Shown here: piece after piece, positions 7,602 through 37,043 of the stretch
How the letters are laid out: each line of letters begins with the position of its first letter
Position numbering within the stretch: the first letter of the stretch is position 1
NCBI GenBank assembly: GCA_963726455.1
Contig: CAVSCK010000004.1
Location: 768,001-832,000 of the forward strand
Source of the DNA: an uncultured bacterium
GTDB taxonomy: Bacteria; Zixibacteria; MSB-5A5; CAIYYT01
Reading direction: 5' to 3'
DNA: 64,000 nt
Made by a program: the position numbers and the translations under genes
The notes under the pieces: model-generated
The model's database searches: none
What the model was told of the DNA's origin: nothing
Seen by the model: only the letters and a program-made list of their open reading frames with translations

Positions 7602-9164
<1,563 letters not shown>

Positions 9165-9625: not shown

Positions 9626-9982
9626 ATGATGCAAGACGACGTAGCAAGTAGCCAGTGTTCATCGCAGCATGAAGGCGCCACGATCGGCTCAAGCGACTTG
9701 ATGGCAGACAAGATGGCGACAAAAGTTTCGGGTCAACTGCCGACCAGAGCCATGGTCAGAGCAATTCAGATCGGCACAGTCCTGTTGACTTTGGGAAGTG
9801 GCCTCCTTCTGAATAGCTGGATCCTGGGCAAGACGAGCGACCTCAATAATTTGAGTAGGTCCAGCGACGCCGGTTATTGGGGACTAATGTCCGTGGCTGT
9901 TGGCGCAGGTATGATGCTTGGAGTTGCGGTCACCTATTTCTATCGCCTGATCTTCTTGATCGTCAAGAGGCACACTGAATGA
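9626..9982 (+). CDS. Hypothetical membrane protein (2 TM)
   Basis: Two hydrophobic segments; start uncertain. Confidence 0.55.
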   Translation: MMQDDVASSQCSSQHEGATIGSSDLMADKMATKVSGQLPTRAMVRAIQIGTVLLTLGSGLLLNSWILGKTSDLNNLSRSSDAGYWGLMSVAVGAGMMLGVAVTYFYRLIFLIVKRHTE

Positions 9983-10025
9983 GATTTGAAATTGCAGATA
10001 TTTATCTTGAGACAGGAGAGCAAGA

Positions 10026-12992: not shown

Positions 12993-15900
12993 TCACTTCA
13001 GCAACACAATCTTCTTGACCGCGCTCTGATTCCGCGACGACACCTTGAAGAAATACACTCCTGAAGCGACCGCCTCTCCCCCATCATTCTTCGCATCCCA
13101 TTCGATTGTATGTCGCCCGGCCGGTTGAAGTTCGGCATCAAACGACCGAATCACTTGACCGAGAATATTCAGAATCTCGATGCCGACCTGCCCCGGCCTG
13201 GGGAGAGAATAGCTGATCATAGTCGAGCTGTTGAATGGATTCGGATAGTTTTGTTCCAGCGTGAAGTTCGATGGAACTTGTTCCTGTTGTGGTTGATCGA
13301 CTACATCCGTGATTACTCGGGGCGAATACGGCGCGTTGTTGTTCAGTCGGCGATTGTATCGCCACATCGGGCATGGCATCTTATCAGCTCTGAACTGACG
13401 GTCGGGAAAATTCAGGAAGACAAGCTCGCCCAGGGCCGTCGTCATCATCAAGTCAATCTTACCATCCTGATTTATATCACCGATCACAGGCGTGTTGGCG
13501 TAGTCATGGGTGATTTGCGTGCCGTGTGCCACGTTGAGCGGCCAACCTGGAAGTATGGCAGCTTCCCGATTCCAGGCAAAAATCCCCTGTCTGTCGGAAG
13601 CTCCCCAGGCATCGGGAATCGCACAACTCACTATCTCTGCGTCATTATCATCATTGACATCACCTAGAATCGCCATGTTGAGCATGCTGGGTTCGGACGC
13701 CGAATTGAAAAATCCATTGGAGGTGCTGTCGCCCAGATACGGCCTACCGTCGTGACGCCAGGCGTAGACGTGACCGTAGTTTAGATCGTAGCAGGTGGAT
13801 ACATATTCGGAGAGAGAATCTCCATCTATGTCGCCGAAGACAGGCATGGTGGGGATGAGAAGGCGACTGATTGGTATTCTTCTGGGCCAACCTGTTTCAA
13901 CTGCGAGCCCGTCACGGAAGGCGTGCAACCAATACGTCATCAGATTCTGCGACCAGCGGTACCGTCCAAAGACGAGCAGCTCGCGTTTGCCGTCGTCGTC
14001 GACGTCCACCGCAGACATGCCTTGCGGCAGGAAACCTGTCGCCAAAGTCAAAGTGACCGACTCGTGTTCGACACCTGCCTGATCATAACACCGGAGAACG
14101 CATTCACCCTCGAGACAGTATATCTCGTCGATTCCATCGCCGTTCAGGTCGGTCGTCAGGCAATTCTGCAGGTAACTTGCGTAGAAGACAATGGGCGTGA
14201 GACTGCCGCCGGCTCTCCAGATGTAAAATCCGCTCGCGGAATTGACGTCAGGATCCGTGCCGGTCTTCAGTTGAATCTCGTCGATGCCGTCGCCGTCGAT
14301 GTCCTTGAGAGAGAGAGCGGCCAGCTTTTCCTCGTCGTTGCGGGCGAAACACGCCGTGTTGGGTGGTTGCGGTATCCAGACCGATTTCAGTCCATTCGCT
14401 GAACTTTGGATATACAAAGCTTGCGGCTCCTGGCTGACCGCCACGAAATCATCAATGTCGTCATAATCGAGTTTGCCCACCGCAATGGGCGTTTGAAAAT
14501 CCAGCGGCGGTAGCGATGGAACTCCAGTCGTCATTGCGGTTCCGTCCGTGCGGAAGAACTTGACCCCGGCGGATGTTCCGACCACAATCTCATTTTGGCC
14601 GTCGCCGTTGAAATCGCCGTAATTCGGAACAATGCTCGCTATGCCTCCAAGGTTGGCGCGCCAGCCGTTGGGAGCAGAAAATGGCGAGCGCACACGAAAG
14701 GCGACGCTGTCGGATACAATTCCACGACGAGTATGCATAGACAGCCGTATGACGTACGACTCTCCATCAGCACTCGCCGCGTTCCAGGAACTAAGCAGCC
14801 CCTTGTACACCGGCGCAGTCACGGTGTCGATCAGTTCCCACTGTGACCCCGCTGCTTCCGCCCTTACGTCCAGCACGGCATACTGGAAATCGATGGCCGA
14901 GGCACTGCCTTGGATCGAGACTGTGGTCGACAACGTTTCGGCCTCCGCGGGCGAGATTATCTCGATACTCTCGCCATTTGCCACATACAGCGTAACCTGC
15001 GACTCATTGACGTCACCAACTTTCAATCTCAGTGTATAGCAGCCGTTCAGTGTGTCAGTGTTCCACTCTGCCAGGGTTGAGTGATTTGCGGGCGTGGATG
15101 CTGAACTGATCGCATACCAAGTCGATGGGTTGGCTCCGTTTCCGAACTCGACAGTGGCCGAACTTATTCCTGATCCCGCAGCCACGCCAAAGATGTTCAC
15201 TAAACCACTCACGATGCTATTCCGTCGCGGAGATTCTATTTGGGCTTGTGTTGCCGGCACGAGCGCCAGCGCTTGCCGCAAATTAATTCTGCCATAGCCA
15301 CTATAGATATCCTGACCAGGGTTATTCCCTCCCGTTCCGTAAGGATCAGTCAAGTCCTTTGCCGATTGTTGAATGATCTGCTGTACCCGATCCACAACGA
15401 GACCGGTAGAAACCGATTTGACATAAGCGGCGACGGCAGCCACGTGCGGACACGCCATGCTGGTACCGGACGCCTCGTAGTAGTAATTCTGGATAATGTG
15501 GACGACCGGCTCATTTGATGGAGGCGCCCCATACATGTCGGTACCGGCGCCACGAAGCGACAGAATCGATTCCCCGGGGGCGACCACATCGACGTGAGTT
15601 CCGTATGTCGAAAAGCTCGTTACGCGATCGCGGCTGTCGGTAGCGCCAACGGCAATAGTAGACGGAAGAACGGACGGATAGAATGCCTCGTTTTGACCGG
15701 AGTTGCCGGTGGCGGCGCAGAGCACAACCCCTTTGGAGCGCGCATAGTTCAGAGCATCTTCCAGTAGTTTGGAGGGATATGGCGAGCCCCAACTCATGTT
15801 GATTACGTCAGCGCCGTTGTCGGTGGCATACACTATCGCTCGGGCGGCTGAGGAAGCAAACATCATGGGATAGAATTTCAAGGGCATGAGCTTTGCGTGC

Positions 15901-16740
15901 GGCGCGATGCCGGCAATGCCAACTCCGTTGTTCGTTGTGGCGGCAATTATCCCCGCAATGTGGCTGCCGTGACCATAGAGATCGGTAGGATCGTTGTCCT
16001 CGTAGACTGGAACCAGCGTTGTATCGTTGGCCGAATAATCCCAACCATGGACGTCGTCAACATAACCATTGTGATCGTCATCCAATCCGTTACCGGGGAT
16101 TTCGCGCGTGTTCGTCCAGAACTGTCCCTGCAAGTCCGGATGAGTGAAATCAATTCCGGTATCAATGATCGCTACGATCACTGTGCTCCTGACCGGCGGA
16201 TTTGTATATACCGCGTCGGCGGCGATGTCACTTCCCGTGGTCCCGGTTGCCAGTGTCATTTGGTCGTTGTTGTCGCCGGGGTTGCGAAGTACGTGCCAGT
16301 AATCTCTGCCCGGTGTTGTGAAGATTCCATTGCTGCAAATACAGTGGATCGTTGGGAGCCGCAAACAACTCCATACGGAAGTCTTGCTCCACGTATTCCA
16401 CATTGCTCAGCGCACGTATTTCGTCCGCCGCCTGCTCGGCATCGCTGGCTACGGGCAGAGTGAGCACAGCCACGCCGCTCATAAACCGGTCGGGCGCTGC
16501 CTCTGGGAATCCCTTGCTCGACTCAACAAATCTGTACTTTCCCGCGAGTCGGTTGAATTCCTCCATTGCCGAGGCCCCTCTGCGAGATAATTTTGACAAA
16601 CCAGCCACAGAGTCGTTCTTGAACTTCACGATTAATCGCGCCGGCGCAGATTGTGCGTCGATCCCGGCCATCGTTTCTTCGTTGAAACTCAGGCAAAGCG
16701 CAGACAAGAAAGCCACTATAAAGAGCCAAGTCGTTGTCAT
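12993..16740 (-). CDS. S8 subtilisin-like protease with FG-GAP-like repeats and FlgD/T9SS-like C-terminal domain (frameshift ~16305)
   Basis: IIDTG, HGSHIAG, SGTSMA triad; QNYPNPFN..ASGVYF tail; signal and propeptide lie in ORF 16228..16824. Confidence 0.92.
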
Positions 16741-16916
16741 CCGCCGACCTCCTTCCCTGTTCACTTCTGCTCTTCCCGCATTCATTTCTCCAGTTCCCTT
16801 GCGCGCGATAATTCGCGCAGCCAACGCACAGATTGACCGAGTACTGAGTCGTCCTTTTCGCGTCGAGACCGTCTACACTTGCGTTGAATTAACTCCCATC
16901 GACTGAGACGAGTCAG

Positions 16917-18218
16917 CTAAAACTCAATGTCGTCGGCATTTCCCGTTCTGCGCGCTCGCTTGAACTCAACAGTCCATTCACTGTCAAAGAATCGTCCGAA
17001 AACGCTCACGTCGGCGCGGCTGGCAGACGGTATCATAGTGACTATGTTCGACACATAGACAATTACCCGACGCGACCAACCATCGCGGTTGTATGGTATC
17101 ACATCGTAGTACCACAATGGCGAGCTCGTAATACCTTCGCTGCAACAGATAGAGTGGTTGGGGTCCAGACGCCTCATAAATCGAGGAATCGAGTCCGGCA
17201 GAATCCAATTAATCTCGAAAGGACTATTACCAATGTCAGGTGAATACTGTCCGCCGCTGCAATTCCAATCATCCGCAATAGTCACCGGCTGCGTGGTGGC
17301 GGCGCCCCAGCGCCAGATGTCAATGAACTTCTCACCCGCCAGCGGACCAACAGTCATTGCTCCCATTTCATAGGCGGTTTTGGGCAACTCCGAGAGCGCT
17401 TCGGTGCTTTCCGGCGACCAGTAGATTGCCACCTTGTCCTCGCTAGCCGAATCGCTTTTCCAAATCAATACAGTGTCGTATGTTGTGTCATACGTTACAT
17501 CGCAGATGACGGGCGGCAAAGGTGGCGGCGGGAAACAGACGCTGTCCACATGGATGATTCGCCTCACTCGGAGATTCGAAAACAGTGTGTCAATTTCGCG
17601 TCGCCCGTTCGTGAAGCGGACAACGGTATCGGGATGGCTGACATCCAGGTACAGTCTGTTGTCTTCAATGTTGTCCCCTGCTGTCACAATCGCGACCTGT
17701 TGTCCGTCGTCAGCATGGCCGAGTATCGTGACCTCCCGCCAGCTTATGAGGAGATAGAAGTATTGGTCGTCATAAGCGGCGCGGCAAAGCGCCCTGTAGA
17801 TATGCGGATCCCGAACAGTATCTCCATCAATGCCGGTTGGCACCGGACGCAGCCGCAAGAACGTTTCCTGCGGACCCCATTCTTCCTTACCGCCGTCAAT
17901 CCCATCCAATAGCGGGGATCTCTGCAGACGGTTGGCAGTAATGGTGTCGGAGTGTCCGGCCGTACTCGAATCGAAACTAACTATGATCGGTTCAGAAGCC
18001 ACGATAGCTCGCATACATCCATTGACAATTCCCACGGATACGAAGCGCGGCGGGGGCGGTGCGCCCGTCGGATCGGTTCCGGTATCACCGGGCGGCCCCT
18101 TCTCGCCTCGTTTGCCACCGACACCTGTATCCCCATCACAACCGGCGATAAAAGCCACAACGCAAATACAATAGGTACACGCTAGAATTACCCTAAGTTG
18201 ACCCACTACAGCACCCAA
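16917..18218 (-). CDS. Lipoprotein with short collagen-like stretch and ethylbenzene-dehydrogenase gamma/DOMON-like domain
   Basis: IAGC lipobox; GKRGEKGPPG; AYD..YFYLLISW, EDKVAIYW, DIWRW, WTVEFKR. Confidence 0.7.
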   Translation of the reverse strand: MGAVVGQLRVILACTYCICVVAFIAGCDGDTGVGGKRGEKGPPGDTGTDPTGAPPPPRFVSVGIVNGCMRAIVASEPIIVSFDSSTAGHSDTITANRLQRSPLLDGIDGGKEEWGPQETFLRLRPVPTGIDGDTVRDPHIYRALCRAAYDDQYFYLLISWREVTILGHADDGQQVAIVTAGDNIEDNRLYLDVSHPDTVVRFTNGRREIDTLFSNLRVRRIIHVDSVCFPPPPLPPVICDVTYDTTYDTVLIWKSDSASEDKVAIYWSPESTEALSELPKTAYEMGAMTVGPLAGEKFIDIWRWGAATTQPVTIADDWNCSGGQYSPDIGNSPFEINWILPDSIPRFMRRLDPNHSICCSEGITSSPLWYYDVIPYNRDGWSRRVIVYVSNIVTMIPSASRADVSVFGRFFDSEWTVEFKRARRTGNADDIEF

Positions 18219-21084: not shown

Positions 21085-21129
21085 TCATTATCTATTCGCG
21101 CTATGTATTCAAGACGTATCAAATAAAAG

Positions 21130-21202
21130 AGCCACCCATCGGAGTCGAACCGACGACCTGCTGATTACGAATCAGCTGCTCTACCAACTGAGCTAGGGTG
21201 GC
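21130..21202 (-). tRNA. tRNA-Thr(CGT)
   Basis: Cloverleaf; anticodon loop TTCGTAA; CCA not encoded. Confidence 0.96.
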
Positions 21203-21213
21203 GTGATTTTAAA

Positions 21214-21287
21214 GTGGCGCCCCCCAGAATCGAACTGGGGACACGCAGATTTTCAGTCTGCTGCTCTACCAACTGAGCTAGGGCGCC
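21214..21287 (-). tRNA. tRNA-Phe(GAA)
   Basis: Cloverleaf; loop CTGAAAA; one surplus G in the G-run at the T-stem/acceptor junction. Confidence 0.95.
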
Positions 21288-21347: not shown

Positions 21348-22271
21348 TTACATTTCACCGGCCAGGTTCGATTGACGTTGCACTTTTTCAAGTGCTGTAA
21401 ACGCCCACTGGAATAACTTCTTGGCCTCACGGAAACGGCGGCTGTTGGAATGTGCGCCTAACACCACGCCGGTGAGATCATGTCCCTTATCGTCCGCGAC
21501 GCGCACGGCAAAGCAGTATCCAGATTCGCCGATGTAACCGGTCTTTCCGCCCTCGATCTTCCAGGTGCTCGAAAGGAGGCGATTGGTGTTTCCAAGGGTA
21601 TACAGGCGATGGCGTCTTTCAGATATGAAGGTGTATTCTTTGGTGCACAGAACTGATTGAATTGTGGGGTTCGTCGAGGCGATATTAACCAGCCGCGCAA
21701 TATCATAGGCGCTGGCGACATTGTTTTCCGACAGGCCGGTCACTTCATCGACCTTGATACTGTACAATCCCAGACTGTCAACTTTGCGGTTCATCCGCAC
21801 GATAAAACTGTCGGTGGAGACGCCGGTTGAACGTACGATCGCACGAGTAGCGCGGTTATCGGAGGACATCAGGCTGCAATGGAACAGGTCGCCGACACGA
21901 TAAATGTCACCGGCGCGCAACTGCGAGCGAGAGGAATTGTTGGCATCGGAGGTATCCATCTCGATTGTCTTGTCCCAGTCGACCTTGAAATCGAGGAAGG
22001 TCAGTGCCGTGATCAACTTGGTAATACTGGCGATCGAACGGACGTTGTATTCGTCCTTGCCGTACAGTTTTTCGGAAGTGCTGTTGTCCTGCAGGAACGC
22101 GGCTTCACACATCAGTTTCGGAGGTGGAACCGCAAGCGTATGGAATCTCGGAGCCGGCGGGCCGTAAGTTTCCTTCGTCATCGACTGTGTTGCCGGTGTC
22201 GGCCAGAATATGGTGATTGACAAGAATGCTGCGAGCGCAATAAATCCGATACGCCTAGTTCCGTTGAACAT
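21348..22271 (-). CDS. S11 D-Ala-D-Ala carboxypeptidase/endopeptidase (PbpG-like)
   Basis: SITK, SDN, KTG motifs. Confidence 0.92.
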   Translation of the reverse strand: MFNGTRRIGFIALAAFLSITIFWPTPATQSMTKETYGPPAPRFHTLAVPPPKLMCEAAFLQDNSTSEKLYGKDEYNVRSIASITKLITALTFLDFKVDWDKTIEMDTSDANNSSRSQLRAGDIYRVGDLFHCSLMSSDNRATRAIVRSTGVSTDSFIVRMNRKVDSLGLYSIKVDEVTGLSENNVASAYDIARLVNIASTNPTIQSVLCTKEYTFISERRHRLYTLGNTNRLLSSTWKIEGGKTGYIGESGYCFAVRVADDKGHDLTGVVLGAHSNSRRFREAKKLFQWAFTALEKVQRQSNLAGEM

Positions 22272-23043
22272 CCAACATCTCCATTATTTGTTTCGCATTA
22301 GACACGGCCTGGCCGCGATGGCAGTTGTTGAAGAACAGATAAATAGTATCCGTCTCCTTCTGCATCCGTTTGATTTTCTCTACCCACTCGGCCAGTTCTT
22401 CCCTACTATATGAATAGTTATACCTATCAGACCCTTTGCCGCTGTACCAATCTTTTGCATTGCGGCCATGAAATCGCACATACCCGATCGAAGTCGTCGC
22501 AACCGCCAGCGGCTCCATCATCTTCTCCAATTGAGGTTCATCGACAGAAACGAAGCCAATCTCTAGCAATTTCAACAACTCGAAGATCTCCTGGCGAACC
22601 CAACTGGCATGCCGAAATTCGACGAAAAGTGGCAGCGTACCCAACATCTCGCGGCATCTTTTGAGATGGTCAATGTGCGCCGGGACGCGAGGAAACGACC
22701 ACGGGAACTGCGCCAGAATACCCTTGAACTTGCCCGATTCGATCATCGGGCGGACGGCTTCAAGGTACTTGGGTGTTTCCTGCTCCAACTGGTCACGCTT
22801 ATGCGTAAGTGATTGGTGCGCTTTGACCATGAAGTCGAACCCGGGCGGCGTCTTGCGCACCATGGCCTCGAAAACCCGCGCATTCGGGATGCCGTAATAG
22901 GTTGAGTTTATTTCCACGGTATCAAAATGTCCGACATAGAAATCCAGCATCTTGGTCTTTTCAATCTTCTCCGGGTAGAACACGCCACGCCAATCCTCAA
23001 AGGAGTATCCCGATGTGCCGACTCGAACTAACCCATTGCTCAT
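22255..23043 (-). CDS. DUF72 (YecE-like) protein
   Basis: VGTSGYS..W.GVFYP; VEINSTYY; YVRFHGRN; FFNNCH. Confidence 0.93.
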   Translation of the reverse strand: MSNGLVRVGTSGYSFEDWRGVFYPEKIEKTKMLDFYVGHFDTVEINSTYYGIPNARVFEAMVRKTPPGFDFMVKAHQSLTHKRDQLEQETPKYLEAVRPMIESGKFKGILAQFPWSFPRVPAHIDHLKRCREMLGTLPLFVEFRHASWVRQEIFELLKLLEIGFVSVDEPQLEKMMEPLAVATTSIGYVRFHGRNAKDWYSGKGSDRYNYSYSREELAEWVEKIKRMQKETDTIYLFFNNCHRGQAVSNAKQIMEMLDVQRN

Positions 23044-23211
23044 AAATGAATTAAAACATTTTTCGCCACAGGGCAAATAATTTTTAACCGCTCTTCTCTC
23101 GTTTTCTAATCTGCTGAAAACGAACTTTACCGCACCTGGGACAAATCCACTTGCGCTGCTTGTGAAACGTACGCTTCTGTTCCTCCATTTGTATCTGACA
23201 TTTCTTGCACA

Positions 23212-23838
23212 TCATATTATGTGGAGCACATCGCCCAACAGAAACTCCATTCTACCAATCAAGAGCGTCATCCGGGATGTGACCGTGTACCCGAACGTCG
23301 CTCCGAAAAAGATCATCAGAAAATAGACGCCGATCTGGCTGATTGCGTTGAAGAACCGTGTGTCGGGCCGCGTGTAGAAAAAATAGACCATCACGGTAAC
23401 TACTCCGACCAGCGAGATGAGCAGGCCGACCAGGGCCAGAGCCGAAACAGTTCCTGCGGCAACATCACTGAACGGCGCAATACCGGCGGCGATTTGCTGC
23501 AGCACGCGGGCATCAAACATCGCCGGAATACTCACACCGGCGCCGGCACCTATTACCAGTGCAAGCACGGGTTTGCTCAAGTATGATAACGAACTCTTCA
23601 AGCGAAGCAACAGCAGCAAACTCAAGGCGAATGGAATGACGCTCAACAGACGTCCATCGACAAAGAGCGGATATAACAGTTTTGGAATGAGTACTGAGTT
23701 CCACAACAGCACCAACGAGAAGCCGACGGATAATCCGATCAGCAAGTGCTCGCAGGCGCGATAAAACGGATTATCGCGATAGAGAAATGAGAAAATGCCG
23801 AGAGTTACGATCGCGGCGGCCAATGTGGCTATCGCCAT
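23212..23838 (-). CDS. Conserved polytopic membrane protein (gene 4 of DUF6754-like operon)
   Basis: FSFLYRDNPFYR..EHLLIG; FFGATFGYTV.SRMTLLIGR; ~6 TM. Confidence 0.8.
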   Translation of the reverse strand: MAIATLAAAIVTLGIFSFLYRDNPFYRACEHLLIGLSVGFSLVLLWNSVLIPKLLYPLFVDGRLLSVIPFALSLLLLLRLKSSLSYLSKPVLALVIGAGAGVSIPAMFDARVLQQIAAGIAPFSDVAAGTVSALALVGLLISLVGVVTVMVYFFYTRPDTRFFNAISQIGVYFLMIFFGATFGYTVTSRMTLLIGRMEFLLGDVLHII

Positions 23839-24653
23839 TTGCGCCTCCGCCCCATGTAGTCGATGACGTTGCCGACGATGATAACAGCCACGATTACGAA
23901 CTGCGACACCGACTGCGCAAACAGGCCTCTTCCCCCACCACCAGACTCGTTCAGCAGTTGTTCGTACTCGGCCGCGCCTTTCAGCCCGGCAACCAGTCCC
24001 GCAATTTGGCCGGATGAGATATAGGGATAAAATGACGTCGCCATAGTCGCGGTCAGCACCGTCTGCAAACGTGCATGATAACGGGTGACCGCATAATCGA
24101 CCCAATAGGTCGGCATGCTTGCATCCGTAATGGAAATCACCATGGCGATCTGATCGTAATTACTGACACCAGACAGAATCGGCAGGAACGATGTCGGATT
24201 GCCAAGATAATCTGTCGGAAACTCCTTCGGCAGCGATTCCCCTATCGCCAGCATCGCCGCTGTATATTGCGGACGAAAGCCGAGGTAGACATAATCCACG
24301 CCGTACTTCTTGCTCTTCTCTGCCGCGACCTGAGACAGTGTGTGCTCGCCCAGTGCGGTACCTTCGGCAAACAGTGATAGTCCGATCACTCGCAGATTCT
24401 TCTGAAAACAATGTCTGATAACTGCAACCGCCAACGGCTTGATTTCGGCAAAGGCGGAGGCCTCGAAGTCGAACGACATTAGTACCGCGCTTCCAGGCGC
24501 TAATGTGTCAATGTTGGCATAGAACTGCCTGGTCTCGGGCGAAGCCGAATGAGTCAACTTGATGTTGAACAACAACGGTACGGCAACTGCCAACAGTATC
24601 ACGAGAAACACAACGTGTCGAGCGGATATGGATTGCATGAATTTCGCCGTCAT
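23829..24653 (-). CDS. Membrane-anchored alpha/beta protein (gene 3; likely DUF6754-related)
   Basis: N- and C-terminal TM; YGVDYVYLGF; PYISSGQIAGLVAGLKGAAEYE. Confidence 0.8.
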   Translation of the reverse strand: MTAKFMQSISARHVVFLVILLAVAVPLLFNIKLTHSASPETRQFYANIDTLAPGSAVLMSFDFEASAFAEIKPLAVAVIRHCFQKNLRVIGLSLFAEGTALGEHTLSQVAAEKSKKYGVDYVYLGFRPQYTAAMLAIGESLPKEFPTDYLGNPTSFLPILSGVSNYDQIAMVISITDASMPTYWVDYAVTRYHARLQTVLTATMATSFYPYISSGQIAGLVAGLKGAAEYEQLLNESGGGGRGLFAQSVSQFVIVAVIIVGNVIDYMGRRRKWR

Positions 24654-25261
24654 CGATAGCTCCGTTCGATCCCGAGAATGACCCTCAACGCCGTTGCGAC
24701 AGAGCCGATTCCAACGCCAATGAGAATACCGCGTTTGGCTGCCGTGGACGGATTGTTCAGCACCCAGCCGGCGATGTCGGGCAGTTGTTGCGAAATCATT
24801 TCGCTGAAACCACTTTTGCCGACCAGCACAATTACCGCTGCGAGCGCCAGCACAAACGCGGGACGCGAGCGAACCCGGAACCCGCGGTAAGCCGCCGAGG
24901 CGACAAAGAACGCCAGCAACGAGAATGTCGTTGCCTGCATCGGCGCCTGGAGATTGTTGAACGCCCACTGATAAGGCGAACTCGCACCTGCGCCTGCTAC
25001 GATGGCAGCAATGATCATGAATAAAATGGCGCCGACGGCGATCAAGCTGTAGCCGCGCTGTTGGGGCGAACGCTGAATCTTGATTGTGTGCTGCTTGAGC
25101 AGACCGATACCGCCGACAATCATCGTTACTGCAAAGACGATCTGGTAGTAGTCCAGAAGCGTTGAGTAGACAGCAGTCGTGGCCGGTGTCCTGAGGAAAT
25201 ACTGCGCCATCATAAAGAGGCCGGTAATCAGCGTCACGATCAATGCCAGCCGGTTGATCAC
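24650..25261 (-). CDS. Conserved polytopic membrane protein (gene 2)
   Basis: FSLLAFFVASAAYRGFRVRS; LRVILGIER; ~6 TM. Confidence 0.8.
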   Translation of the reverse strand: MINRLALIVTLITGLFMMAQYFLRTPATTAVYSTLLDYYQIVFAVTMIVGGIGLLKQHTIKIQRSPQQRGYSLIAVGAILFMIIAAIVAGAGASSPYQWAFNNLQAPMQATTFSLLAFFVASAAYRGFRVRSRPAFVLALAAVIVLVGKSGFSEMISQQLPDIAGWVLNNPSTAAKRGILIGVGIGSVATALRVILGIERSYR

Positions 25262-26053
25262 AATATCCTCCGATAAACATTGACACCGAAGATCGCCAGC
25301 ACTGGAAGCAGGAGAAGCAGCGCAACAATCAGCAAGCGCACCAGGTCTTGCGCGTACATTGATGATTTGACACGATAGTCATCCGTCAAATATGCCGACG
25401 CTGTGTACAGTTCCTCGCCGATCAATGTGTAATCACACGCCACGATAAAAAATGAAAGCTGTATTGTTGAATCGGTGCCCGCTATTTGTAGCGCTCCGTT
25501 GAAATTGCCTGTCTCAGCAAGGATCAGCGCCTCGCCTTCGAAGGTGCCCAGAAGGAACATCGCACCCGGTTTAAGGCGTGACACGATGCCGTCAACACCT
25601 GCGGCATAGCCGAACTGCGAAGGCGAAACAAAGGTGATATCTTCTTCGTGAAACTGGTCTGGACGACCGGCTTCGTTACACGCCGTTCTGATTATTTCCT
25701 TGGCCGTTTCGGCTATGACGGGATCGTGGGTCGGAAAGATGAATGCGACAACCGTATGCTGCCGCCTTGGTGGCGACAAAACGCAACAGGTTCAGTGCGG
25801 CGAGAGTCGTCGGACGCTGAATGTCGCCTCCCCAACCGGTCGTAAAAACGATGGGCTTGCCCTGTTCGGTAGCACGACCGATGGCTTCTTCAATCGCTTT
25901 GATACCCGGTATAGTGCGCAACGGCAGGCGCGGCTGGCGCAGGCGATAACTGAAATAGGTAACGACACCGCCGGTCAGCAGCACCCAAATCAGGAGCATC
26001 AACGACGCCCGATCAAACGCACCCGCTACGAGAACGAATGAAACCATGTTCAC
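25258..26053 (-). CDS. DUF6754-like protein (gene 1; frameshift ~25743)
   Basis: IPGIKAIEEAIGRATEQGKPI; EALILAETG..GALQIAGT..FFIVACDYTLIGEELYTASAYL; family name from recall. Confidence 0.78.
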
Positions 26054-26175
26054 ACCAATTCAGCCAAAAGCGTTACAGTATGGCGCCTGCAGATTTTGAG
26101 ATCAACAAAAATATCTGGGCGACTGCCGCCCCGGTTTTAGTTGACAAAAATGCGCCGTGGCTGTTTGATACTCGC

Positions 26176-27441
26176 ATGCGACACCTCAAAAACACACTGC
26201 ACTTATTGGGTATTGCGCTATTTTTGGCAGGCCTTCCATTTCTGATTTTGTCCTGCGGAAAATCATCTTCCGGAAACAATGCCATAGCCTTCTGGCAGTT
26301 CTGGACAAGCCCCGACGTGAAGCCAACAGTACGGCAATTGGCCGATGATTTTGAGAAGACTCACAACGGAATTAAGGTGGAGCTCGGCGACCTGACCTGG
26401 TCGGATGGGCACGAGAAGATTGCAATTGCACTCGCGGCCGGCAGCGGCCCCGACGTTATCGAACTCGGCTCCGACTGGATTGCCGAATTCGCAGCAAGCG
26501 GGAAACTACTCGATCTCACAGACGCCACCTCCGGTTTGAAGGATAGTCTGGTGATGTGGGACCCTGCGATTTACCAGGGCAAACGCTATGCTGTTCCCTG
26601 GATGCTAGGCACGCGGGTTCTGTTCTGCAACAGGACTTTGTTAAGAGAAGCGGGCTACGAGGATTCGTTCGTGCCTAAAACCTGGGTCGAACTGGCTGAG
26701 GCGGCGGCAAAGATCAACAGACTTGGCAGCGGCCGCTTTGGCTTCGGATCGAATTCGGCGGAACGACATCGACTCTACAAGAAATATCTTCCCTTCTTCT
26801 GGTCTGCCGGCGGCGAAGTATTCAACGGCGACATGACAGCGACCCAATTTAGTTCTGACGCCGGCCGCAAGAGCATGGAATATTACCTGCGCCTGGCGGC
26901 AAATGGTTTGACGGAAACACAATCTCGCATCGAGGATTACTTCGCTGCAGGCAAAATCGGATTCGTGATCTCAGGTGAATGGCTGGTAAAGCGGTTGGAG
27001 CGTTCTGAAAGATCATTCGACTATTTCGTCACAACCATGCCTTCCCCCGGCGGCAGGAAGCCGGGCGTGTCATTTGCGGGTGGTGAATATCTAGTGATCA
27101 AGGCGTCGTCGAAGGCCGCGCCAATGGCGTTCGAGATGATTCGGTCTTTCGTGCAACCACAGAACGACACCATGTTCGCAACGGCGACCGGAAGCTTCAC
27201 GCCGGTGAACAAATATTCCACGATGGCATTCCCGAGTACGCTGACGCCGATCGCTTCGGTATTTCAGGAGCAACTGCGCAACTCACGCTCCACACCGGTA
27301 CATCCGGCCTGGGTTTCGCTTGAAGAAGCACTGGAACGCGGCATTGAACAGGCGCTGTACAAGAAACAATCCCCGGAATCGGCGCTGCAAATGATCGACA
27401 GCGATTGCGCTGCCATACTCAAGAAATATGCCGGCCAATAG
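26176..27441 (+). CDS. Sugar ABC transporter substrate-binding lipoprotein
   Basis: ILSC lipobox; AAGSGPDV, YAVPW, FAGGEYL. Confidence 0.92.
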   Translation: MRHLKNTLHLLGIALFLAGLPFLILSCGKSSSGNNAIAFWQFWTSPDVKPTVRQLADDFEKTHNGIKVELGDLTWSDGHEKIAIALAAGSGPDVIELGSDWIAEFAASGKLLDLTDATSGLKDSLVMWDPAIYQGKRYAVPWMLGTRVLFCNRTLLREAGYEDSFVPKTWVELAEAAAKINRLGSGRFGFGSNSAERHRLYKKYLPFFWSAGGEVFNGDMTATQFSSDAGRKSMEYYLRLAANGLTETQSRIEDYFAAGKIGFVISGEWLVKRLERSERSFDYFVTTMPSPGGRKPGVSFAGGEYLVIKASSKAAPMAFEMIRSFVQPQNDTMFATATGSFTPVNKYSTMAFPSTLTPIASVFQEQLRNSRSTPVHPAWVSLEEALERGIEQALYKKQSPESALQMIDSDCAAILKKYAGQ

Positions 27442-28310
27442 CACGCAGCGTCTGCGTATCTCGGATTACTTCTTTCTGTCGCCTTGGCTGTTGACGCTGC
27501 TGATATTCTGGCTCTTTCCGATTCTGGCGTCATTGCTCCTGAGTTTCACCGACTATCGCCTTTTGTCAAGCGGGTATAACTTTCGTCGGTGTCGACAATT
27601 TCGTGGCGCTGCTTCGTGATCCGACTTTCGTCAGAGCCATCGTAAATACATTCCTATTCACAGTCGGTACACTGCCATTCACTACTTGCTTTGCCATTCT
27701 GCTGGCGGTCTTTCTGAATCGGAGTCTGCCGTTACGGACATTTTTCCAGTCGGTATACTTCTTCCCGTCGATGGTGTCGCTCGTCGTAGTCGCCCTGATC
27801 TTCACTTCTCTATATGCGCGCGGCGGCTACATACAACAGCTCTGCGGCCTGGTGGGAGTCTCCGCGCCCTCCGACGGCTTCTTGTTCTCGACTGCAACGG
27901 CGCTGCCGGCGATCATGGCGATGGATGTCTGGATGTCGACCGGCTATTACATGCTGCTATTTCTTGCGGCTCTGCAATCAATTCCCAATGAACTATATGA
28001 AGCTGCACGTCTCGACGGCGCAAGTGCCTGGCGGCAGTTTCAGGTGGTTACGCTGCCGCATCTGAAGCCGATGCTGTTGTTTGTGGTCGTCCTGAACAGC
28101 ATCAAATCGTTTCAGGTATTCGTCGAAGTGTTCGTCATGACCAAGGGCGGTCCGCTCAATTCGACCATGACGATGGTGTATTTCGTTTACGAGGAAGGCC
28201 TGCACAAATTCAACATCGGTTACGGCGCCGCGGCGGCGAATATACTATTCTTGATTATCGCAATTGTCTCCTTTTTGGAACTGAAACTCATCAAGGAAAA
28301 GACTGCGTAG
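27428..28310 (+). CDS. Carbohydrate ABC permease (frameshift ~27582)
   Basis: LYEAARLDGA EAA loop; extra T in a T-run. Confidence 0.9.
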
Positions 28311-28311
28311 A

Positions 28312-29130
28312 ATGAACCGCCCGCTAAAGTCATACGCCAACTTGGCCGTCGCGATTGTGATTGCACTGATCATGCTCCTGCCGTTCGCCTACCTTCTGCT
28401 CGGCGCGTTGGCCAAAACATTTTCGCTGACCGGAATGATCGATTCTGCAAATTACCGCCTGACTTTCGCCAACTTCAGCGCCCTGTTTGCGCGCGCCGAA
28501 CTGTATCTGCCCCTTGTCAACTCGATTATCGTTGCCGGCATTGTCACTATCGGCAATCTCTTCTTCTGCACTCTTTGCGGCTATGTGCTGGCGCGCCGTC
28601 GCTTCCGAGGCAAAGGGATACTGACGATGACCGTGATCCTCGTCTTGATGGTGCCGATACACGTCGTGATTATTCCAATGTATTTGATGACCAACTGGCT
28701 GGGCATTTTCGACACTTATTTGGCGCTGATCTTGCCGTTCCTCGTCAGCCCGTTGGGAATCTTTCTGATGCGACAGTACATTTCGGCGATACCTCCCGAT
28801 ATGGAGGACTCCGCGCGACTTGAAGGCGCCGGCGAATTGACCATCATCTGGCGCATCGTGATGCCGTTGTGCAAACCGGCGCTGGCGGTGCTTGCGGTAC
28901 AAACTTTCATGGTCAATTGGAATTCGTTCATCTACCCCTTTATCCTGACGTCGTCCGAATCCATGCGAACGTTGCCGGTTGCGCTGGCGCTGTTGCAGGG
29001 ATATCAAAACATCGACGTGCCTCAATTATTCGCGGCATCAGTAATCTCAGTGCTGCCAACAACGATTCTTTTCGTCGCCTACTCGAAACGAATTACTGAG
29101 GGGATTATCGCCGGCGCGCTCAAGGGTTAG
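28312..29130 (+). CDS. Carbohydrate ABC permease
   Basis: MEDSARLEGA; WNSFIYP; RTLPVAL. Confidence 0.93.
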   Translation: MNRPLKSYANLAVAIVIALIMLLPFAYLLLGALAKTFSLTGMIDSANYRLTFANFSALFARAELYLPLVNSIIVAGIVTIGNLFFCTLCGYVLARRRFRGKGILTMTVILVLMVPIHVVIIPMYLMTNWLGIFDTYLALILPFLVSPLGIFLMRQYISAIPPDMEDSARLEGAGELTIIWRIVMPLCKPALAVLAVQTFMVNWNSFIYPFILTSSESMRTLPVALALLQGYQNIDVPQLFAASVISVLPTTILFVAYSKRITEGIIAGALKG

Positions 29131-29139: not shown

Positions 29140-30987
29140 CTATTTGCCGCAGTTGGACTTTTCGACTTCGCTGTCGACGAAATCCATCACGCCTTCAACA
29201 ATGGCTTCTGCGGTCTTCTTCTGGAACGCCGGGTCTTTCAAGTCCATCTCCTGTTCTGGAATCATCATGAATGCACACTCCACCAGGATCGCCAGATAGC
29301 CGGTCGGGCGCACTACCGCAAAATTGCCGTTGTACAGGCCGATATCGGTCAGTCCCGTTGCCTTCACCAGTCGCGCTTGCACGCACTTGGCGAGATCGTG
29401 CGATTGCGGTTCGTAGTAGTAGGTCGAACTGCCGCTGTTATAAAATGGATTGATGCCGTCCGGCAGTGCATTGTTGTGAATCGAAATGTAAAAGTCGGGG
29501 CTATATCTGTAGGCCAGCTTCGGTCGATCATACAGTGCGATTCCAGTGTCGCCATTTCGGGTCATATAGACCGTCGCCTTGCGATCGCGCAATTGCTCTG
29601 CCACATCCAGCGCGATGGCCAGATTAGCATCTTTCTCGGCATAACCAGTTGGTCCGACCGCACCTGGATCAGGCGAGTGGCCGGGATCAATCACGAACTT
29701 GAGCCCCTTGAGCTTCTCCTCGAAATGCGGACGATTGCGCAATTTGAGATTGAAGCGTGTTCCTTCATAGTAGCAGTCGTATCCCCAGAGCGTTTGATTG
29801 AGGTCGATCGTTAGTCGCAACAACCCGACCTGCGGCTGACTCCATTCAATGCGATTGATCAGACTGTCATTCGTATCGTAGCGGATGAAATCGATTGAGG
29901 ATGTCGCATTGAATATATCAACACAGACTTCGTTTTCGACAGGGTCTTCCTCAACGCGGTAAGGCACTTTGGCGCCGAGATTGAAAGTGACTAACACACC
30001 ACGATCGACTTTGCGCGTCCGTATCAGCGATACATCGCCAGACGGCAATTGCGTTCCAACCGGAAGAATCTTCACGGAACTATCGGGCACCCAGCCGTCG
30101 ACGTCAGTCAGAAGCCGCGCCCGGTAGTGGTCATTATACTTGCCCGTGATCCGCAGCCGAATGCCTTTCGGTTGATAGACTGCCAGGTATCCTTTCCGCG
30201 GGCCCGTGCGAATAGTCTGCACGGAGTCGATCAATTCTCCGATGACCACCTTCGAAGCTGGCATTACCGCAACAGCCGCGTCATTACTTCGGTTCACGCA
30301 GCCGCAATCGGCTAATTGCTGTTTGAAAGTCTTGTCTTTGGTGCCGAGCTTCTTGAGCAGTTTGCGGCATAGATAGTAGTCGATCTTGTTGGAGTCGCTC
30401 ACATGCTTATCTGTAAGAACCTCGCAGCCGGTGTAGACTCCCCGCACCAACAGGGATTCGGGATACTCGCCGCTCCCCCACAACGCATCTGCCCAGTAAC
30501 TCTGTTGCGTCGGCGGTGTCTCGGTCATTCGATACAGGTCGGCGTCGCTGGAAAGCTTGAAATATCCAAACATGCCCGGCGTGCCTCGGAAAGAAGTGTT
30601 GAAGAGATCGCCTTCCATGAGCATGATGTCATTGGAGGGCGACATGTAACCTTTGACAATTGCAGGTCCCAGTCCCTCGGGAATCTCATATGGTTGAGGA
30701 ACATCAATCGGCACTTCTAGTGTCGCCGATTGACCTTTGAGCGAGGCTTCGAGACGAAATACGAATGAGCCCGACCTGACCGCCAGCCAGCCGAGAAAGG
30801 CGCCGTCAGGATAGACCTTGACATCAATACCGTTAATCCTCAGTTTCGATTCCGGGGTTACGTTTCCGAAAATGAACATTGAATCGACCGCCGCGATTCG
30901 CTGTTTGGCTTTGGGATATATTACCTCTATTCGCGGCTTCTCTTGTGCCACGGCGCTTGCCGCGCAGAATACCAGAACCAGCAACAT
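29140..30987 (-). CDS. N-acetylmuramoyl-L-alanine amidase (Amidase_3)
   Basis: IDPGH, EKDANL, SIHNNA, ILVECAF. Confidence 0.93.
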   Translation of the reverse strand: MLLVLVFCAASAVAQEKPRIEVIYPKAKQRIAAVDSMFIFGNVTPESKLRINGIDVKVYPDGAFLGWLAVRSGSFVFRLEASLKGQSATLEVPIDVPQPYEIPEGLGPAIVKGYMSPSNDIMLMEGDLFNTSFRGTPGMFGYFKLSSDADLYRMTETPPTQQSYWADALWGSGEYPESLLVRGVYTGCEVLTDKHVSDSNKIDYYLCRKLLKKLGTKDKTFKQQLADCGCVNRSNDAAVAVMPASKVVIGELIDSVQTIRTGPRKGYLAVYQPKGIRLRITGKYNDHYRARLLTDVDGWVPDSSVKILPVGTQLPSGDVSLIRTRKVDRGVLVTFNLGAKVPYRVEEDPVENEVCVDIFNATSSIDFIRYDTNDSLINRIEWSQPQVGLLRLTIDLNQTLWGYDCYYEGTRFNLKLRNRPHFEEKLKGLKFVIDPGHSPDPGAVGPTGYAEKDANLAIALDVAEQLRDRKATVYMTRNGDTGIALYDRPKLAYRYSPDFYISIHNNALPDGINPFYNSGSSTYYYEPQSHDLAKCVQARLVKATGLTDIGLYNGNFAVVRPTGYLAILVECAFMMIPEQEMDLKDPAFQKKTAEAIVEGVMDFVDSEVEKSNCGK

Positions 30988-30988
30988 C

Positions 30989-32008
30989 CTAAGCAAGTGT
31001 GTTCTCCTCCGTCGTAATACCGATTCCCGGGCCTTCCGGCAGCAGTAGAGTTTCTCCCACGAATTGTGCGCCCCAGTAAGGATCATTTGCCGTCAGCAGG
31101 ATCGCGTCGAGATCGAAGTAATCAAAGAGTGATTCCAGGTGTAGCGCGGCCGTAATGCCGATTGCGGTTTCAATCATGCAGCCGAGCATGAGCTTTAGGT
31201 TATGCTTTCTCGCGCGCTCGGCGATCTCCATTGCCAGCGTGATGCCACCGCATCTCATAAGTTTGACATTCACGCCGTCAATAACCGCCGCAAATTTGTC
31301 GACGTCAGCGACCGTGACTACGGATTCATCCAGAAAGATGCTGCACGCAACTTTCGTCTTTATCTTGTCCAACTCCGCTATTTCGGGATTAGTCAACGGT
31401 TGCTCGATGAAATCAACCGGGTATCCTCGCAACTGTCGCAAGGCATCGATTGTCTGATCGACTGTCCAGCCACCGTTGGCATCGAGGCGCAGGCGACAGT
31501 CCTTGTGCTTCAATATGTAATCAACGAAATCCAGATCACGCGCAAAGCCAACTTTGATTTTGATCGCACTGAACGGCTCCGCGCGCTCCAACTGCTTCTG
31601 CACCTCTTCTTCGGTGCCGGGTGTAATCGTAAAAGAGCTGACAGCTTTGCGGGGCTTTGGGAGATTCAGATACTGCCAGAGTGGAATTCCTTTTTGCCTC
31701 GCGCGATTGTCGAGATAAGCCATTTCGAGCCCGCAGCGGGCGACATTCATTTCTCGCGGCAGTTGTTCAATAAATTCTCGAAGACTGTCTTCGTCGATAT
31801 TACCACCATACTCCCTGAGCCGTAGGTCGAGCACCTCTTTCATTTCGCTCGCGGATTTCCCGTAGTGAACTGATGGCGAGCCCTCGCCCAGGCCACTGCC
31901 GTACCTAACGATCAGGGTATCTTTCTCTTCTGCCTTTGCCTTGGAGATGTTAAAGGATTGCTTCAACCGCAGCCGGTAAAGTCTTAGCGTCACAGGATAA
32001 TTAGCCAC
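30989..32008 (-). CDS. Dipeptide (L-Ala-D/L-Glu) epimerase, enolase superfamily
   Basis: KIKVG, DANGGW, EQP, DES, GCMIE, DLD. Confidence 0.9.
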   Translation of the reverse strand: MANYPVTLRLYRLRLKQSFNISKAKAEEKDTLIVRYGSGLGEGSPSVHYGKSASEMKEVLDLRLREYGGNIDEDSLREFIEQLPREMNVARCGLEMAYLDNRARQKGIPLWQYLNLPKPRKAVSSFTITPGTEEEVQKQLERAEPFSAIKIKVGFARDLDFVDYILKHKDCRLRLDANGGWTVDQTIDALRQLRGYPVDFIEQPLTNPEIAELDKIKTKVACSIFLDESVVTVADVDKFAAVIDGVNVKLMRCGGITLAMEIAERARKHNLKLMLGCMIETAIGITAALHLESLFDYFDLDAILLTANDPYWGAQFVGETLLLPEGPGIGITTEENTLA

Positions 32009-32047
32009 GCATCTCGCCTCGTTCAGTCGAAAGCCAGTCCATTCTGT

Positions 32048-32797
32048 TCACGGCAATACCCTCCTGACCGCCCTGACCTTGTCCGCCAAGTCAGCTCGAA
32101 AATCGGGCGCATCCTTGTCAAGCGACTCAATCACAACCATACCACGCAATCGTGTCGCGTGAATGATCCGCAATCCCCCAAGACATATCGCCACATGGCC
32201 GGGAAAGAAAATCAGATCACTGTCGCGTGCATTTGCCAGTGTCACCTCGCTTCCCAACCTGCTCTGGTCTTTGCTGTCGCGAGGAAGATTGACACCGCAC
32301 CGACTGTACACTGCCTGCACCAGTCCGCTGCAGTCGTAACCAAACGGAGATGAACCGCCCCACAGATAAGGCGCCGACAGGAGCGTCCGGGCAATTTGGT
32401 TCGGTATCAGTTCGGCACGCTGCATGACGCTATCCACGTCGCCGGAGATAGTGGTCATTTTCGACTGTGTGCAGATTTCCCGATACACACCGCCTGATTT
32501 TTCGGGATACACCAACGCACCGAACGGCAAAACTAACTCGCTACCATTCTCCATTGTGAAAGTTGCCCACCGGGAGGCAACCACGGCAGGATTCGGCAAC
32601 GAGTCGTCAGTCTCCTCCAGGTAACTCTCGGCCAGAAAGCCGTCGTACCCGTCGCCAGTGCGCACGCGGCAGAATTTCTCTGCCTGATCGATTAGCTCTA
32701 CGCAATGGCCGTACAAGACCTGCGACATGCGTTCGCAACCATGACGGGGTTCACGCCGAAGATCGGCAACGGGAACGATCACAATGCGGGAAGACAT
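32048..32797 (-). CDS. SH3 + NlpC/P60 (C40) peptidase, YkfC-like
   Basis: SQVLYG; PYLWGG..DCSG..LPRDS..GHV..H. Confidence 0.92.
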   Translation of the reverse strand: MSSRIVIVPVADLRREPRHGCERMSQVLYGHCVELIDQAEKFCRVRTGDGYDGFLAESYLEETDDSLPNPAVVASRWATFTMENGSELVLPFGALVYPEKSGGVYREICTQSKMTTISGDVDSVMQRAELIPNQIARTLLSAPYLWGGSSPFGYDCSGLVQAVYSRCGVNLPRDSKDQSRLGSEVTLANARDSDLIFFPGHVAICLGGLRIIHATRLRGMVVIESLDKDAPDFRADLADKVRAVRRVLP

Positions 32798-32908
32798 AGG
32801 TCAATAAAGGGCAGACTCAAGCCATACTTCAACAAAAATTGCATCGTCAGTTGATCGCGATTCAAGTGAATCGCAATCTCAGCCATATCAATTCATACGT
32901 CTGCCAAC

Positions 32909-36900: not shown

Positions 36901-37043
36901 TTCACACCGACGTTATGAGTCGCGTCGATTATCATGATTTCGCCGGGACTTTCCCATTTCCCTGAAATGTTGCTGAGACTCCACGCCACCGCGGTCATCA
37001 ACAGAAACATTGTCAGGGAAAGAACCAATCTCGATTTATTCAT
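33996..37043 (-). CDS. Large secreted protein with T9SS/FlgD-like C-terminal domain
   Basis: Signal peptide; DPDLG..DDLVGCD; YAVTAY; VPNPY..IKFINLP..IFNIAGDLV-like..WDL..PGIY. Confidence 0.85.
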   Translation of the reverse strand: MNKSRLVLSLTMFLLMTAVAWSLSNISGKWESPGEIMIIDATHNVGVNSLDMIITNVGNYAYDKTASRGRNDGLYFPRGTNLHCIYDAGIWLGAKVNGRTRIAVAEYSSEFTPGPMLDGTFQTDSPDFRVYELNRGDDAATNPDFAIWPVNQGAPVDSTGSPAILGDQMAWAVYNDGDPAQHSNNAGSTQPLGLEIQQSTFAFARAGALGNAIYLKFRIINKGPNQLDSAFVSAWSDPDLGEASDDLVGCDTLLSLGYCYNSGPDNLYGAAPPSVGFVFLEGPIIPAAPEDSALVSGKWRHGFKNLPMTAFNRYVNGTDPDNPSVTYTYMKGLNRDGTQVINPVTNEVTTFVASGDPKEGTGWLDPTPADKRMMLNAGPFTMNPGDTQEVVIACIVGQGTDPISSVSALKNNVGKIQAVFNLNFQIPNPPPPPSVWARGIEGGVDLSWGDEPVGTVDSSAILNQEFHFEGFNVWQGASAVGPWTKFATYDISDQAACGISDISGDPPETTFTFCDVASLYGDVVDPAAGGTQRLILQKGSNSGLQYHLSLNTSKVDGSPLKDNQPYWYAVTAYSYDVRNMTPFFDLNQKFLGFIVENLESPIISYEVRPRVFSGVFQDTAQHTGTSDGTLAIEYMIPADVTGHTYQVGFAEDLTWFLRDLNLPAAQETLLVNQTNQDPNGPYKTVDGIQWKMEGLPPGIKGWAWAGQTRWITGEAAFGGNPDWLNGGLWNGPDFFGSNIQPAQYRTVEIRFSNTTKQKCYDYLRGGTPNYAAIGYFDCPFTIWDVQSNPPRQLNAGFVENNGQPATYDSTWFPGADGTKAREYLFIFNSTYSETPDPFYMNNNPNANGSDMDIMYAMTPKLRNPPFAITDIQEGDKLTIEAAKPNLPADVFQYTSKKAETVNGTYVANSLDGVLTVPNPYYNYYNEERDQFHRMIKFINLPAAPMTIRVFNIAGDLVRTMQRTDIYNSEFVWDLKTDKGLWVAPGIYVWLIEAPGLGSKYGKMAIFTEVEQLNTF

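Follow-up and report, generated by a model that had tools for sequence, protein, structure and literature searches.

The closest described relative of the genes reported here is a protein family without a function. Pfam family DUF6754 (PF20539) carries a name only, and a full-text search of 8.1 million PubMed Central papers and 0.36 million preprints found no paper naming DUF6754 or PF20539; the remark in a preliminary description of this DNA that the family has no assigned function holds. We have analyzed a member of this family in an uncultured bacterium of the Zixibacteria, in a stretch of 64,000 nt (hereafter the window) from contig CAVSCK010000004.1 of assembly GCA_963726455.1. The member is encoded by the first of four consecutive genes for membrane proteins, here called A, B, C, and D, that occupy positions 23212 to 26053 of the window. 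The protein A belongs to DUF6754 by its hidden Markov model score, the copy in the window being frame-broken. ATP-binding cassette (ABC) importers differ from the four proteins, which by Pfam and NCBIfam have neither the BPD_transp_1 domain, the EAA loop, nor an ABC_tran or other nucleotide-binding domain.

We consider it likely that A–D are subunits of one conserved membrane system. In the Zixibacteria at least, the DUF6754 protein is always encoded together with three other membrane proteins that no family database contains, and what was a lone domain family thereby becomes a defined, testable system.

The four-gene set and its conservation

All four genes lie on the minus strand. Gene A (25258–26053) encodes the DUF6754 protein, which is about 262 aa long in relatives and is split between two frames here. 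It is followed by gene B (24650–25261), encoding a 203-aa polytopic membrane protein of no known family; gene C (23829–24653), encoding a 274-aa protein predicted to consist of a transmembrane helix, an alpha/beta domain, and a second transmembrane helix; and gene D (23212–23838), encoding a 208-aa polytopic membrane protein, again of no known family. The stop codon of A and the start codon of B share the tetranucleotide GTGA (25261–25258), the stop codon of B and the start codon of C share ATGA (24653–24650), and C and D overlap by 10 nt (23838–23829), exactly as the preliminary description had read these junctions. B starts at the GTG within GTGA, with a GGAGG ribosome-binding site just 5' of it, and a GGAGG-type site also lies 5' of the start of D. 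The four genes are real, as relatives of each recur across related loci, and we propose that one mRNA, translated with coupling between the genes, yields all four proteins together.

Scanning a DUF6754 alignment against one genome per species gave matches to 195 stretches of DNA, 190 of which encode a relative. The locus counts given below refer to the best 80 of these 190 related stretches (L001–L080), which were searched by tblastn with the window proteins. This search detected A in all 80 loci, B in 78, C in 76, and D in 64. All 16 loci that are without one or more of the genes end at most 205 nt past the last gene found, at the ends of contigs, and all 64 loci with enough DNA keep the order A–B–C–D on one strand; no other order occurs in any locus. 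The conserved four-gene synteny that had been suggested as a check on the preliminary description is thus what the relatives display.

The close packing of the genes is conserved as well. We measured junctions in the 59 loci with four complete open reading frames (ORFs), the choice of start codons being guided by homology, and in these loci the genes abut or overlap. Distances at the A/B junction run from −4 to +1 nt. At B/C most values are −4 or −1, apart from a single −128 at a doubtful start; at C/D most are −1, −4, or −10, apart from a single +272, where C is seemingly truncated.

Mean pairwise identities were calculated from 57 loci, L029 and L062 having been dropped for doubtful ORF calls, and are 0.65 for A, 0.58 for B, 0.56 for C, and 0.61 for D, as against 0.52 for the product of a neighboring gene, a substrate-binding protein (SBP). 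The minimum pairwise identities of the A–D proteins are 37–47%. Invariant columns number 75 in A, 41 in B (35 sequences), 40 in C, and 42 in D; those of A and C include acidic residues, cysteine, and threonine, and those of B and D include charged or polar residues within or beside hydrophobic segments.

By their database labels, 33 of the 80 loci come from Zixibacteria, and 27 from Ignavibacteria or Ignavibacteriales, the labels of the other 20 giving no phylum. The Ignavibacteria-labeled loci interleave with those of Zixibacteria by similarity, and the Ignavibacteria labels are unconfirmed. In one metagenome-assembled genome (isolate Gpa_37) the DUF6754 locus occurs twice, on separate contigs (L020 and L027), which could reflect duplication, strain mixture, or a binning artifact.

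The DUF6754 protein and its partners

The two pieces of A were scored separately against PF20539, which has a gathering cut-off of 27 bits. The N-terminal piece scores 72 bits (profile positions 6–100 of 257) and the C-terminal piece 191.4 bits (positions 97–254), so that the two combined cover nearly the whole profile. The preliminary label of the whole operon as DUF6754-like is accordingly apt for A, but not for B, C, and D, which belong to no Pfam family. DNA alignment with relatives makes the ATG at 26047 a likelier start for A than the GTG at 26053.

The gene is read here as two ORFs, 25676–26053 and 25258–25779. Compared with its three closest loci (L001–L003), with which it shares 74–75% nucleotide identity, the window has one extra base, aligned at 25740, within a frame break at 25739–25742 on the minus strand. 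With the orthologue from L001 as query, tblastn frames −1 and −2 switch between 25742 and 25740, and in the protein alignment to intact relatives the break falls between YGCRI and LFPTHDP. A is one continuous frame in all 80 related loci and not continuous in the window; because the break is absent from every relative, a programmed frameshift was rejected. A second single frame change lies at about 27579–27583, in the first permease gene of the neighboring ABC importer (tblastn frames 2 and 3, orthologues from L001 and L002). Single frame breaks in two well-conserved genes, only about 1.8 kb apart, suggest an assembly error, which is the most likely cause of the break in A, although it may be a recent mutation. 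That the break is real and the system in this genome an inactive pseudogene remnant would fit the split in A and the database's own gene call for it, a 100-aa fragment (P0097). We regard this as rather unlikely, since the two pieces retain 75 of the 75 positions invariant in 34 relatives, B, C, and D are intact, and the second break nearby, on a contig of 1.9 Mb, resembles an assembly indel error.

DUF6754 extends well beyond the loci described here. A profile search among 1.84 billion representatives matched 2334 representative clusters (50% identity) at E ≤ 1e-3, 895 of them at E ≤ 1e-30. In the best 150 representatives, 143 of 151 domain rows have over 60 aa of N-terminal extension before the domain (median 255). 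Pfam analysis of 75 of these 150 found DUF6754 in all 75, together with fn3 domains in five and PQQ_2 beta-propellers in five, located in the extension. Examples of this long type start with signal-peptide-like segments. With one long-type member as query, 8000 of the 8000 clusters scored (90% identity) matched at E ≤ 1e-3, so that the clusters similar to it number at least 8000; the source names of long-type matches include Cloacimonetes, Riflebacteria, Wallbacteria, Coatesbacteria, Eremiobacterota, Armatimonadetes, Chloroflexi, and Erysipelotrichia, and the proteins are all named 'hypothetical'. No region like B, C, or D is fused to DUF6754 in any of the best 150 representatives, the longer length class lying outside this search, and tblastn of a plasmid collection with a long-type DUF6754 protein gave no match.

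The Zixibacteria-type proteins are short, having neither the signal peptide nor the extracellular N-terminal extension, and they form a single split with 100/100 support in a tree of 35 members. Their GWGGDIQRPTT and PTHDP segments are replaced by different residues in the long type. Invariant across the whole family are G57-R58-x-T60-E61, G71, D75, T81, E117, Q144-F145, G153, P160, E172, E178, Q187-x-A-G-T191, Q196, F199-F200, C204-D205-Y206, G210-E-E-L213, Y219, and Q233-D234; the A of the window retains the family-wide GRxTE, QF, AGT, CDY, and GEEL motifs.

Structure predictions made with AlphaFold2 bear out the earlier view of A and C as alpha/beta proteins flanked by transmembrane helices. 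The model of C (35-row alignment) has a predicted local distance difference test (pLDDT) score of 91.2 and a predicted template-modeling score (pTM) of 0.86, and displays an N-terminal transmembrane helix, a six-stranded parallel alpha/beta (Rossmann-like) domain, a long C-terminal transmembrane helix, and a tail rich in lysine and arginine. Foldseek matched it in the PDB to generic Rossmann folds only (best E 4.8e-4, template-modeling scores ≤ 0.33), among them alcohol dehydrogenases, short-chain dehydrogenases/reductases, eIF2B, and similar proteins. Its invariant residues include D62/E64, E97, and D177. For A, the orthologue from L001 was modeled (34 rows) with a modest pLDDT of 72, again with a Rossmann-like alpha/beta domain between two transmembrane helices, and Foldseek found only generic Rossmann likeness in the PDB (best E 0.1).

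The two domains are probably on opposite sides of the membrane, that of A in the cytoplasm and that of C in the periplasm. By the positive-inside rule, basic residues mark the cytoplasmic side; the termini of C are rich in lysine and arginine (2–4 and 4–5 residues), and those of A are poor in them, its basic stretch following the first transmembrane helix. An outside N-terminus of A would fit the signal peptide and the fn3 or beta-propeller domains that precede the first transmembrane helix in long-type relatives.

B and D are polytopic, as described previously, but the earlier count of about six transmembrane segments in each is approximate: a hydropathy scan (19 residues) gives 4–5 segments in B and 5–6 in D. 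Among the invariant residues of B are Q40, P96, W99, P107, Q109, T111, R126-G-F128, W166, P171, R177, G182/G184/G186-S187, T190, R193, E199, and R200. Those of D include Y20, N23-P24, Y26, E30, G97-x-G99-A-G101, P105, R111, Q115, T181, T185, S188-R189, R196, and D203, and D carries a glycine-rich helix, IGxGAGVxIPAM. Of the 8000 sequences scored against D, 4071 are relatives at E ≤ 1e-3, and the 120 relatives listed are about 204 aa long, none with a Pfam domain. The nearest ESM Atlas clusters to D and B consist of unnamed proteins of about 190–207 aa from Bacillota, Bathyarchaeota, and Chloroflexota (scores 0.96–0.97), which we take as leads only.

No subunit could be tied to a characterized protein. 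C and D match no Pfam family at E ≤ 1, B has sub-threshold Pfam matches only, and none of the three has an NCBIfam match above cut-off. Among 35 relatives each of D and B, scanned against Pfam at E ≤ 1, the matches were to DUF5658 (15 of 35, best E 0.01) and to Acyl_transf_3 (7 of 35, best E 0.0088); both are below cut-off and were taken as hydrophobic noise. Searches of PDB sequences with profiles of A, B, C, and D and with a diverse DUF6754 alignment returned nothing below E 0.1. The preliminary description had seen no ATPase, EAA loop, or redox motif, and the present data agree, Pfam and NCBIfam giving no ATPase, ABC-permease, or redox family for A–D and the translations containing no visible Walker A (GxxxxGK[ST]) or CxxC motif. 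Nor did any subunit prove to be a known transporter or enzyme, an outcome that would have counted against the earlier reading of the operon as novel: there is no match in Pfam, NCBIfam, PDB sequences, or, for A and C, PDB folds.

Relationships among the four proteins, in contrast, are not as previously described. The 'related late motifs' seen in A and C are without profile support, as hhalign gives the pair a probability of only 2.4%, and likewise shows no relationship between B and D (4.2%); hhalign on halves, a search for internal repeats and for kinship of B and D, reached at most 11.8% and found none. The suggested 2+2 architecture of two related pairs thus finds no basis in homology and is further weakened by the probable location of the A and C domains on opposite sides of the membrane. 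Complex prediction with B, C, D, and the L001 orthologue as partner A (34-row alignments each) gave scores that are not separated from those of a control complex with a substitute for chain C, and is thus neutral as to binding.

Neighboring genes and the divergent intergenic region

Upstream of A, and transcribed divergently from it, lie the genes of a CUT1-type sugar ABC importer (26176–29130, plus strand; Pfam SBP_bac_1 and BPD_transp_1), a conserved neighbor of the four-gene set. The first gene (26176–27441) encodes an SBP_bac_1 protein that matches sugar SBPs in NCBIfam and the PDB, the best PDB match being 3uor (E 1.3e-38), followed by Lin1841. Its mechanically predicted ORF starts at 26038 and would overlap the start of A head to head; homologues start at 26176 (MRHLK...) and have a lipobox-like ILSC, and the protein is thus probably a lipoprotein of about 421 aa. 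Two permease genes follow (27428–28310, frame-broken as noted above, and 28312–29130), both with BPD_transp_1 domains, and both products are of the MalFG type, with EAA-type loops retained. No ATPase gene lies beside these three genes; CUT1 systems are commonly without an adjacent ATPase gene. By clustering of neighboring ORFs, with Pfam run on representatives, 69 of the 71 loci with more than 1700 nt upstream have the SBP gene (it is missing from L046 and L053), and all 56 loci with more than 3800 nt upstream have the permeases.

The intergenic region between A and the SBP gene is 122 bp long (26054–26175) and contains an inverted pair of the motif GTTTTWGTTGA, one copy directed toward A (26102–26112, minus strand) and the other toward the SBP gene (26134–26144, plus strand). 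A copy directed toward A occurs in 51 of 71 loci, and copies directed toward both A and the SBP gene occur in 15 of 71. Half of its 132 hits in 771 kb of locus DNA (66) lie in the upstream regions, which make up 30.5 kb, or about 4%. In the window there are 6 hits with at most one mismatch versus 2.1 expected, the other copies being at 32829–32839, 16913–16923, 36998–37008, and 8493–8503, all on the minus strand; one copy lies about 32 nt before a string of NlpC/P60, epimerase, and amidase genes. The motif is either an operator common to both genes or a promoter −35 region whose upstream half is rich in T. Between 22900 and 26300, scans for consensus promoters and terminators gave results at chance level.

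Downstream of D is a DUF72 gene (22255–23076, minus strand; PF01904), a frequent but not constant neighbor, its cluster being found in 38 of the 50 loci whose DNA continues for over 1200 nt past D. Other neighbors are specific to clades: Amidase_3 proteins and S11 D,D-carboxypeptidases (DD-carboxypeptidases) occur in 18 loci each, in the clade of the window, and an OmpA-like protein (39 loci), Big_5 proteins (32), and ABC-2 permeases (28) are neighbors in the other.

In the window's clade, genes with a peptidoglycan-peptide theme surround the operon; in the window they lie at 29140–32797 and 21348–22271 (both minus strand) and encode a 648-aa Amidase_3 protein, an NlpC/P60 protein with an SH3 domain, and an S11 DD-carboxypeptidase. 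An MR_MLE enzyme encoded there is closest to the N-acetyl-D-Glu racemase and L-Ala-D/L-Glu epimerase models, below cut-off. Genes for tRNA-Thr(CGU) and tRNA-Phe(GAA) lie side by side at 21129–21287 (minus strand), downstream of the DD-carboxypeptidase gene. Farther away, a gene for a Mrr-type restriction endonuclease (4693–5436, minus strand) is followed by about 3.4 kb (6630–10026) with only short ORFs of up to 137 aa, which may be a small mobile or defense islet or may hold more frame-broken genes. The window also encodes a PA14 protein with a PEP-CTERM anchor (394–1077, minus strand) and an S8 protease with a Por_Secre_tail domain of the type IX secretion system (12993–16403, minus strand), pointing to two different surface-sorting signals in one genome.

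Proposed role and comparison with known systems

We have attempted to combine these observations into a model of what A–D may do. In our proposal they would form one inner-membrane hetero-oligomer, the 'DUF6754 system', in which B and D make up the membrane core; A, held by two transmembrane helices, would present its conserved Rossmann-like domain to the cytoplasm, and C, held in the same way, would present a second, unrelated Rossmann-like domain to the periplasm. A substrate that is a carbohydrate or derived from the cell envelope would be moved across the inner membrane or chemically processed at or across it, in step with the activity of the divergently transcribed CUT1 importer, with the cytoplasmic domain of A as the ligand-binding or catalytic end. 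We infer assembly into a complex from the strict co-occurrence of the proteins and the overlap of their genes. The link to sugar uptake comes from the presence of the SBP gene in 69 of 71 loci and of the permease genes in 56 of 56, and from the inverted motif directed toward both operons; A–D would also be co-regulated with the ABC genes. The substrate class and the activity, whether transport or processing, are guesses, and a role in translocation or processing linked to carbohydrates or the envelope is put forward tentatively. As a whole, a four-subunit inner-membrane complex with such a role is the best explanation we can offer, at somewhat less than even confidence.

Several points weigh against this proposal. 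All 80 loci come from one lineage, so that the conserved neighborhood with the ABC genes could be inherited order, not function. Correlations of pairwise identity are high (r 0.83–0.94) for all pairs, the SBP and DUF72 proteins included; they do not set A–D apart and were uninformative as a mirror-tree style test. The motif GTTTTWGTTGA also precedes other genes (15 hits with ABC-2 permease genes and 42 hits without a gene) and so may be only a promoter −35 region and not an operator. The most conserved stretch of A, residues 184–208, is modeled at pLDDT < 50, and B and D could have a known transporter fold.

The shared lineage and the equally correlated divergence of the SBP and DUF72 proteins would also be expected of four independent membrane proteins that are adjacent through common descent only and have no joint function. 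This is improbable given that abutting or overlapping start and stop codons persist in all 59 complete loci, even where identity falls to about 37%, and that the set is never broken up or reordered in any locus. The preliminary description had suggested a 2+2 complex that perhaps imports peptides or amino acids independently of ATP. Its more general suggestion of a candidate novel membrane complex stands insofar as A–D are a co-translated, co-inherited set of an unfamiliar kind, but a transporter role is not supported for peptides or amino acids. The conserved polar residues of the two polytopic subunits and the lack of an ATPase would suit such an importer, and there are genes for proteases and peptidoglycan hydrolases elsewhere in the window. 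These genes are not part of the set, however, and the peptidase, amidase, and NlpC/P60 neighbors are specific to one clade; the conserved neighbor is a sugar-type ABC system, an SBP with two permeases; no homology is detectable between A and C or between B and D; and the relatives of B match AA_permease_2 in 1 of 35 cases (E 2e-4) and Na_Ala_symp in 2 of 35, all below cut-off. We consider this the least probable of the explanations.

Another possibility is that A–D sense the state of periplasmic sugar or of the envelope and control the adjacent ABC operon. The divergent arrangement with a common inverted motif, the presence of no regulator gene among the conserved neighbor clusters, and domains that are probably on both sides of the membrane would all suit a transmembrane sensor or regulator. 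Pfam and NCBIfam, however, detect no kinase, DNA-binding, cyclase, or other signaling domain in A–D, and four subunits, two of them polytopic, would be unusual for a sensor, making this explanation hardly more attractive than a peptide importer. Instead of transporting a solute, A–D may form a membrane-embedded enzyme complex for the biogenesis or recycling of the envelope, with A, C, or both as catalytic subunits and, for example, a lipid-linked glycan or a peptidoglycan-derived sugar as substrate; this reading has more in its favor. The family-wide invariant residues of A include D75, T81, E117, E172, E178, T191, C204-D205, and E211-E212, several of which are at or just after predicted strands in the model; C has the invariant D62/E64, E97, and D177; some long-type relatives carry extracellular fn3 or beta-propeller domains (5 of 75 each); and cell-wall genes (amidase, DD-carboxypeptidase, NlpC/P60, OmpA-like) lie nearby in two clades. 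There is no match to an enzyme family, however, the Foldseek matches are to generic Rossmann folds at template-modeling scores of at most 0.33, and the neighboring cell-wall genes differ between the clades. We give such an enzyme complex a minor though appreciable chance of being correct.

A broader version of our own proposal is speculative and should be treated with reserve: the DUF6754 system would represent a new class of machine across uncultivated phyla, possibly including archaea, in which the cytoplasmic Rossmann-like subunit A is coupled via B and D to the periplasmic C for translocation or modification of carbohydrates or envelope components independently of an ATP-binding cassette, with most lineages carrying extracellular fn3 or beta-propeller domains on A. 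By 'new' we mean without detectable link to anything characterized, which is different from a demonstrated new mechanism. Should the system prove to be a new type of transporter or envelope enzyme, it would fill a gap in the metabolic reconstruction of several candidate phyla.

Comparison with known systems places A–D at some distance from all of them. No PADLOC family of anti-phage defense matched the four proteins. The phosphotransferase system (PTS) offers an analogy in EIIB and EIIC, where a small cytoplasmic Rossmann-like domain with an invariant cysteine (C204 in A) is tethered to polytopic subunits. A–D have no PTS match in Pfam or NCBIfam, no PTS chain is among the listed Foldseek matches of A and C, and no EI or HPr genes were seen nearby by Pfam analysis of the window. 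The likeness to the tripartite ATP-independent periplasmic (TRAP) transporters, with DctQM, and the tripartite tricarboxylate transporters (TTT), with TctAB, is one of idea only: A–D are also without an ATPase and lie beside an SBP gene. Neither the window proteins nor 35 relatives each of B and D match DctQ, DctM, TctA, or TctB, and in contrast to TRAP and TTT the adjacent SBP goes with two ABC permeases that have EAA-type loops. Most likely, then, the SBP works for a canonical ABC system whose ATPase is encoded elsewhere. CUT1 importers such as MalEFG, UgpABE, and GlcSTU resemble the conserved divergent neighbor of the four genes, not A–D themselves, which by the tests run are a real and strongly conserved feature, far from the systems described to date.

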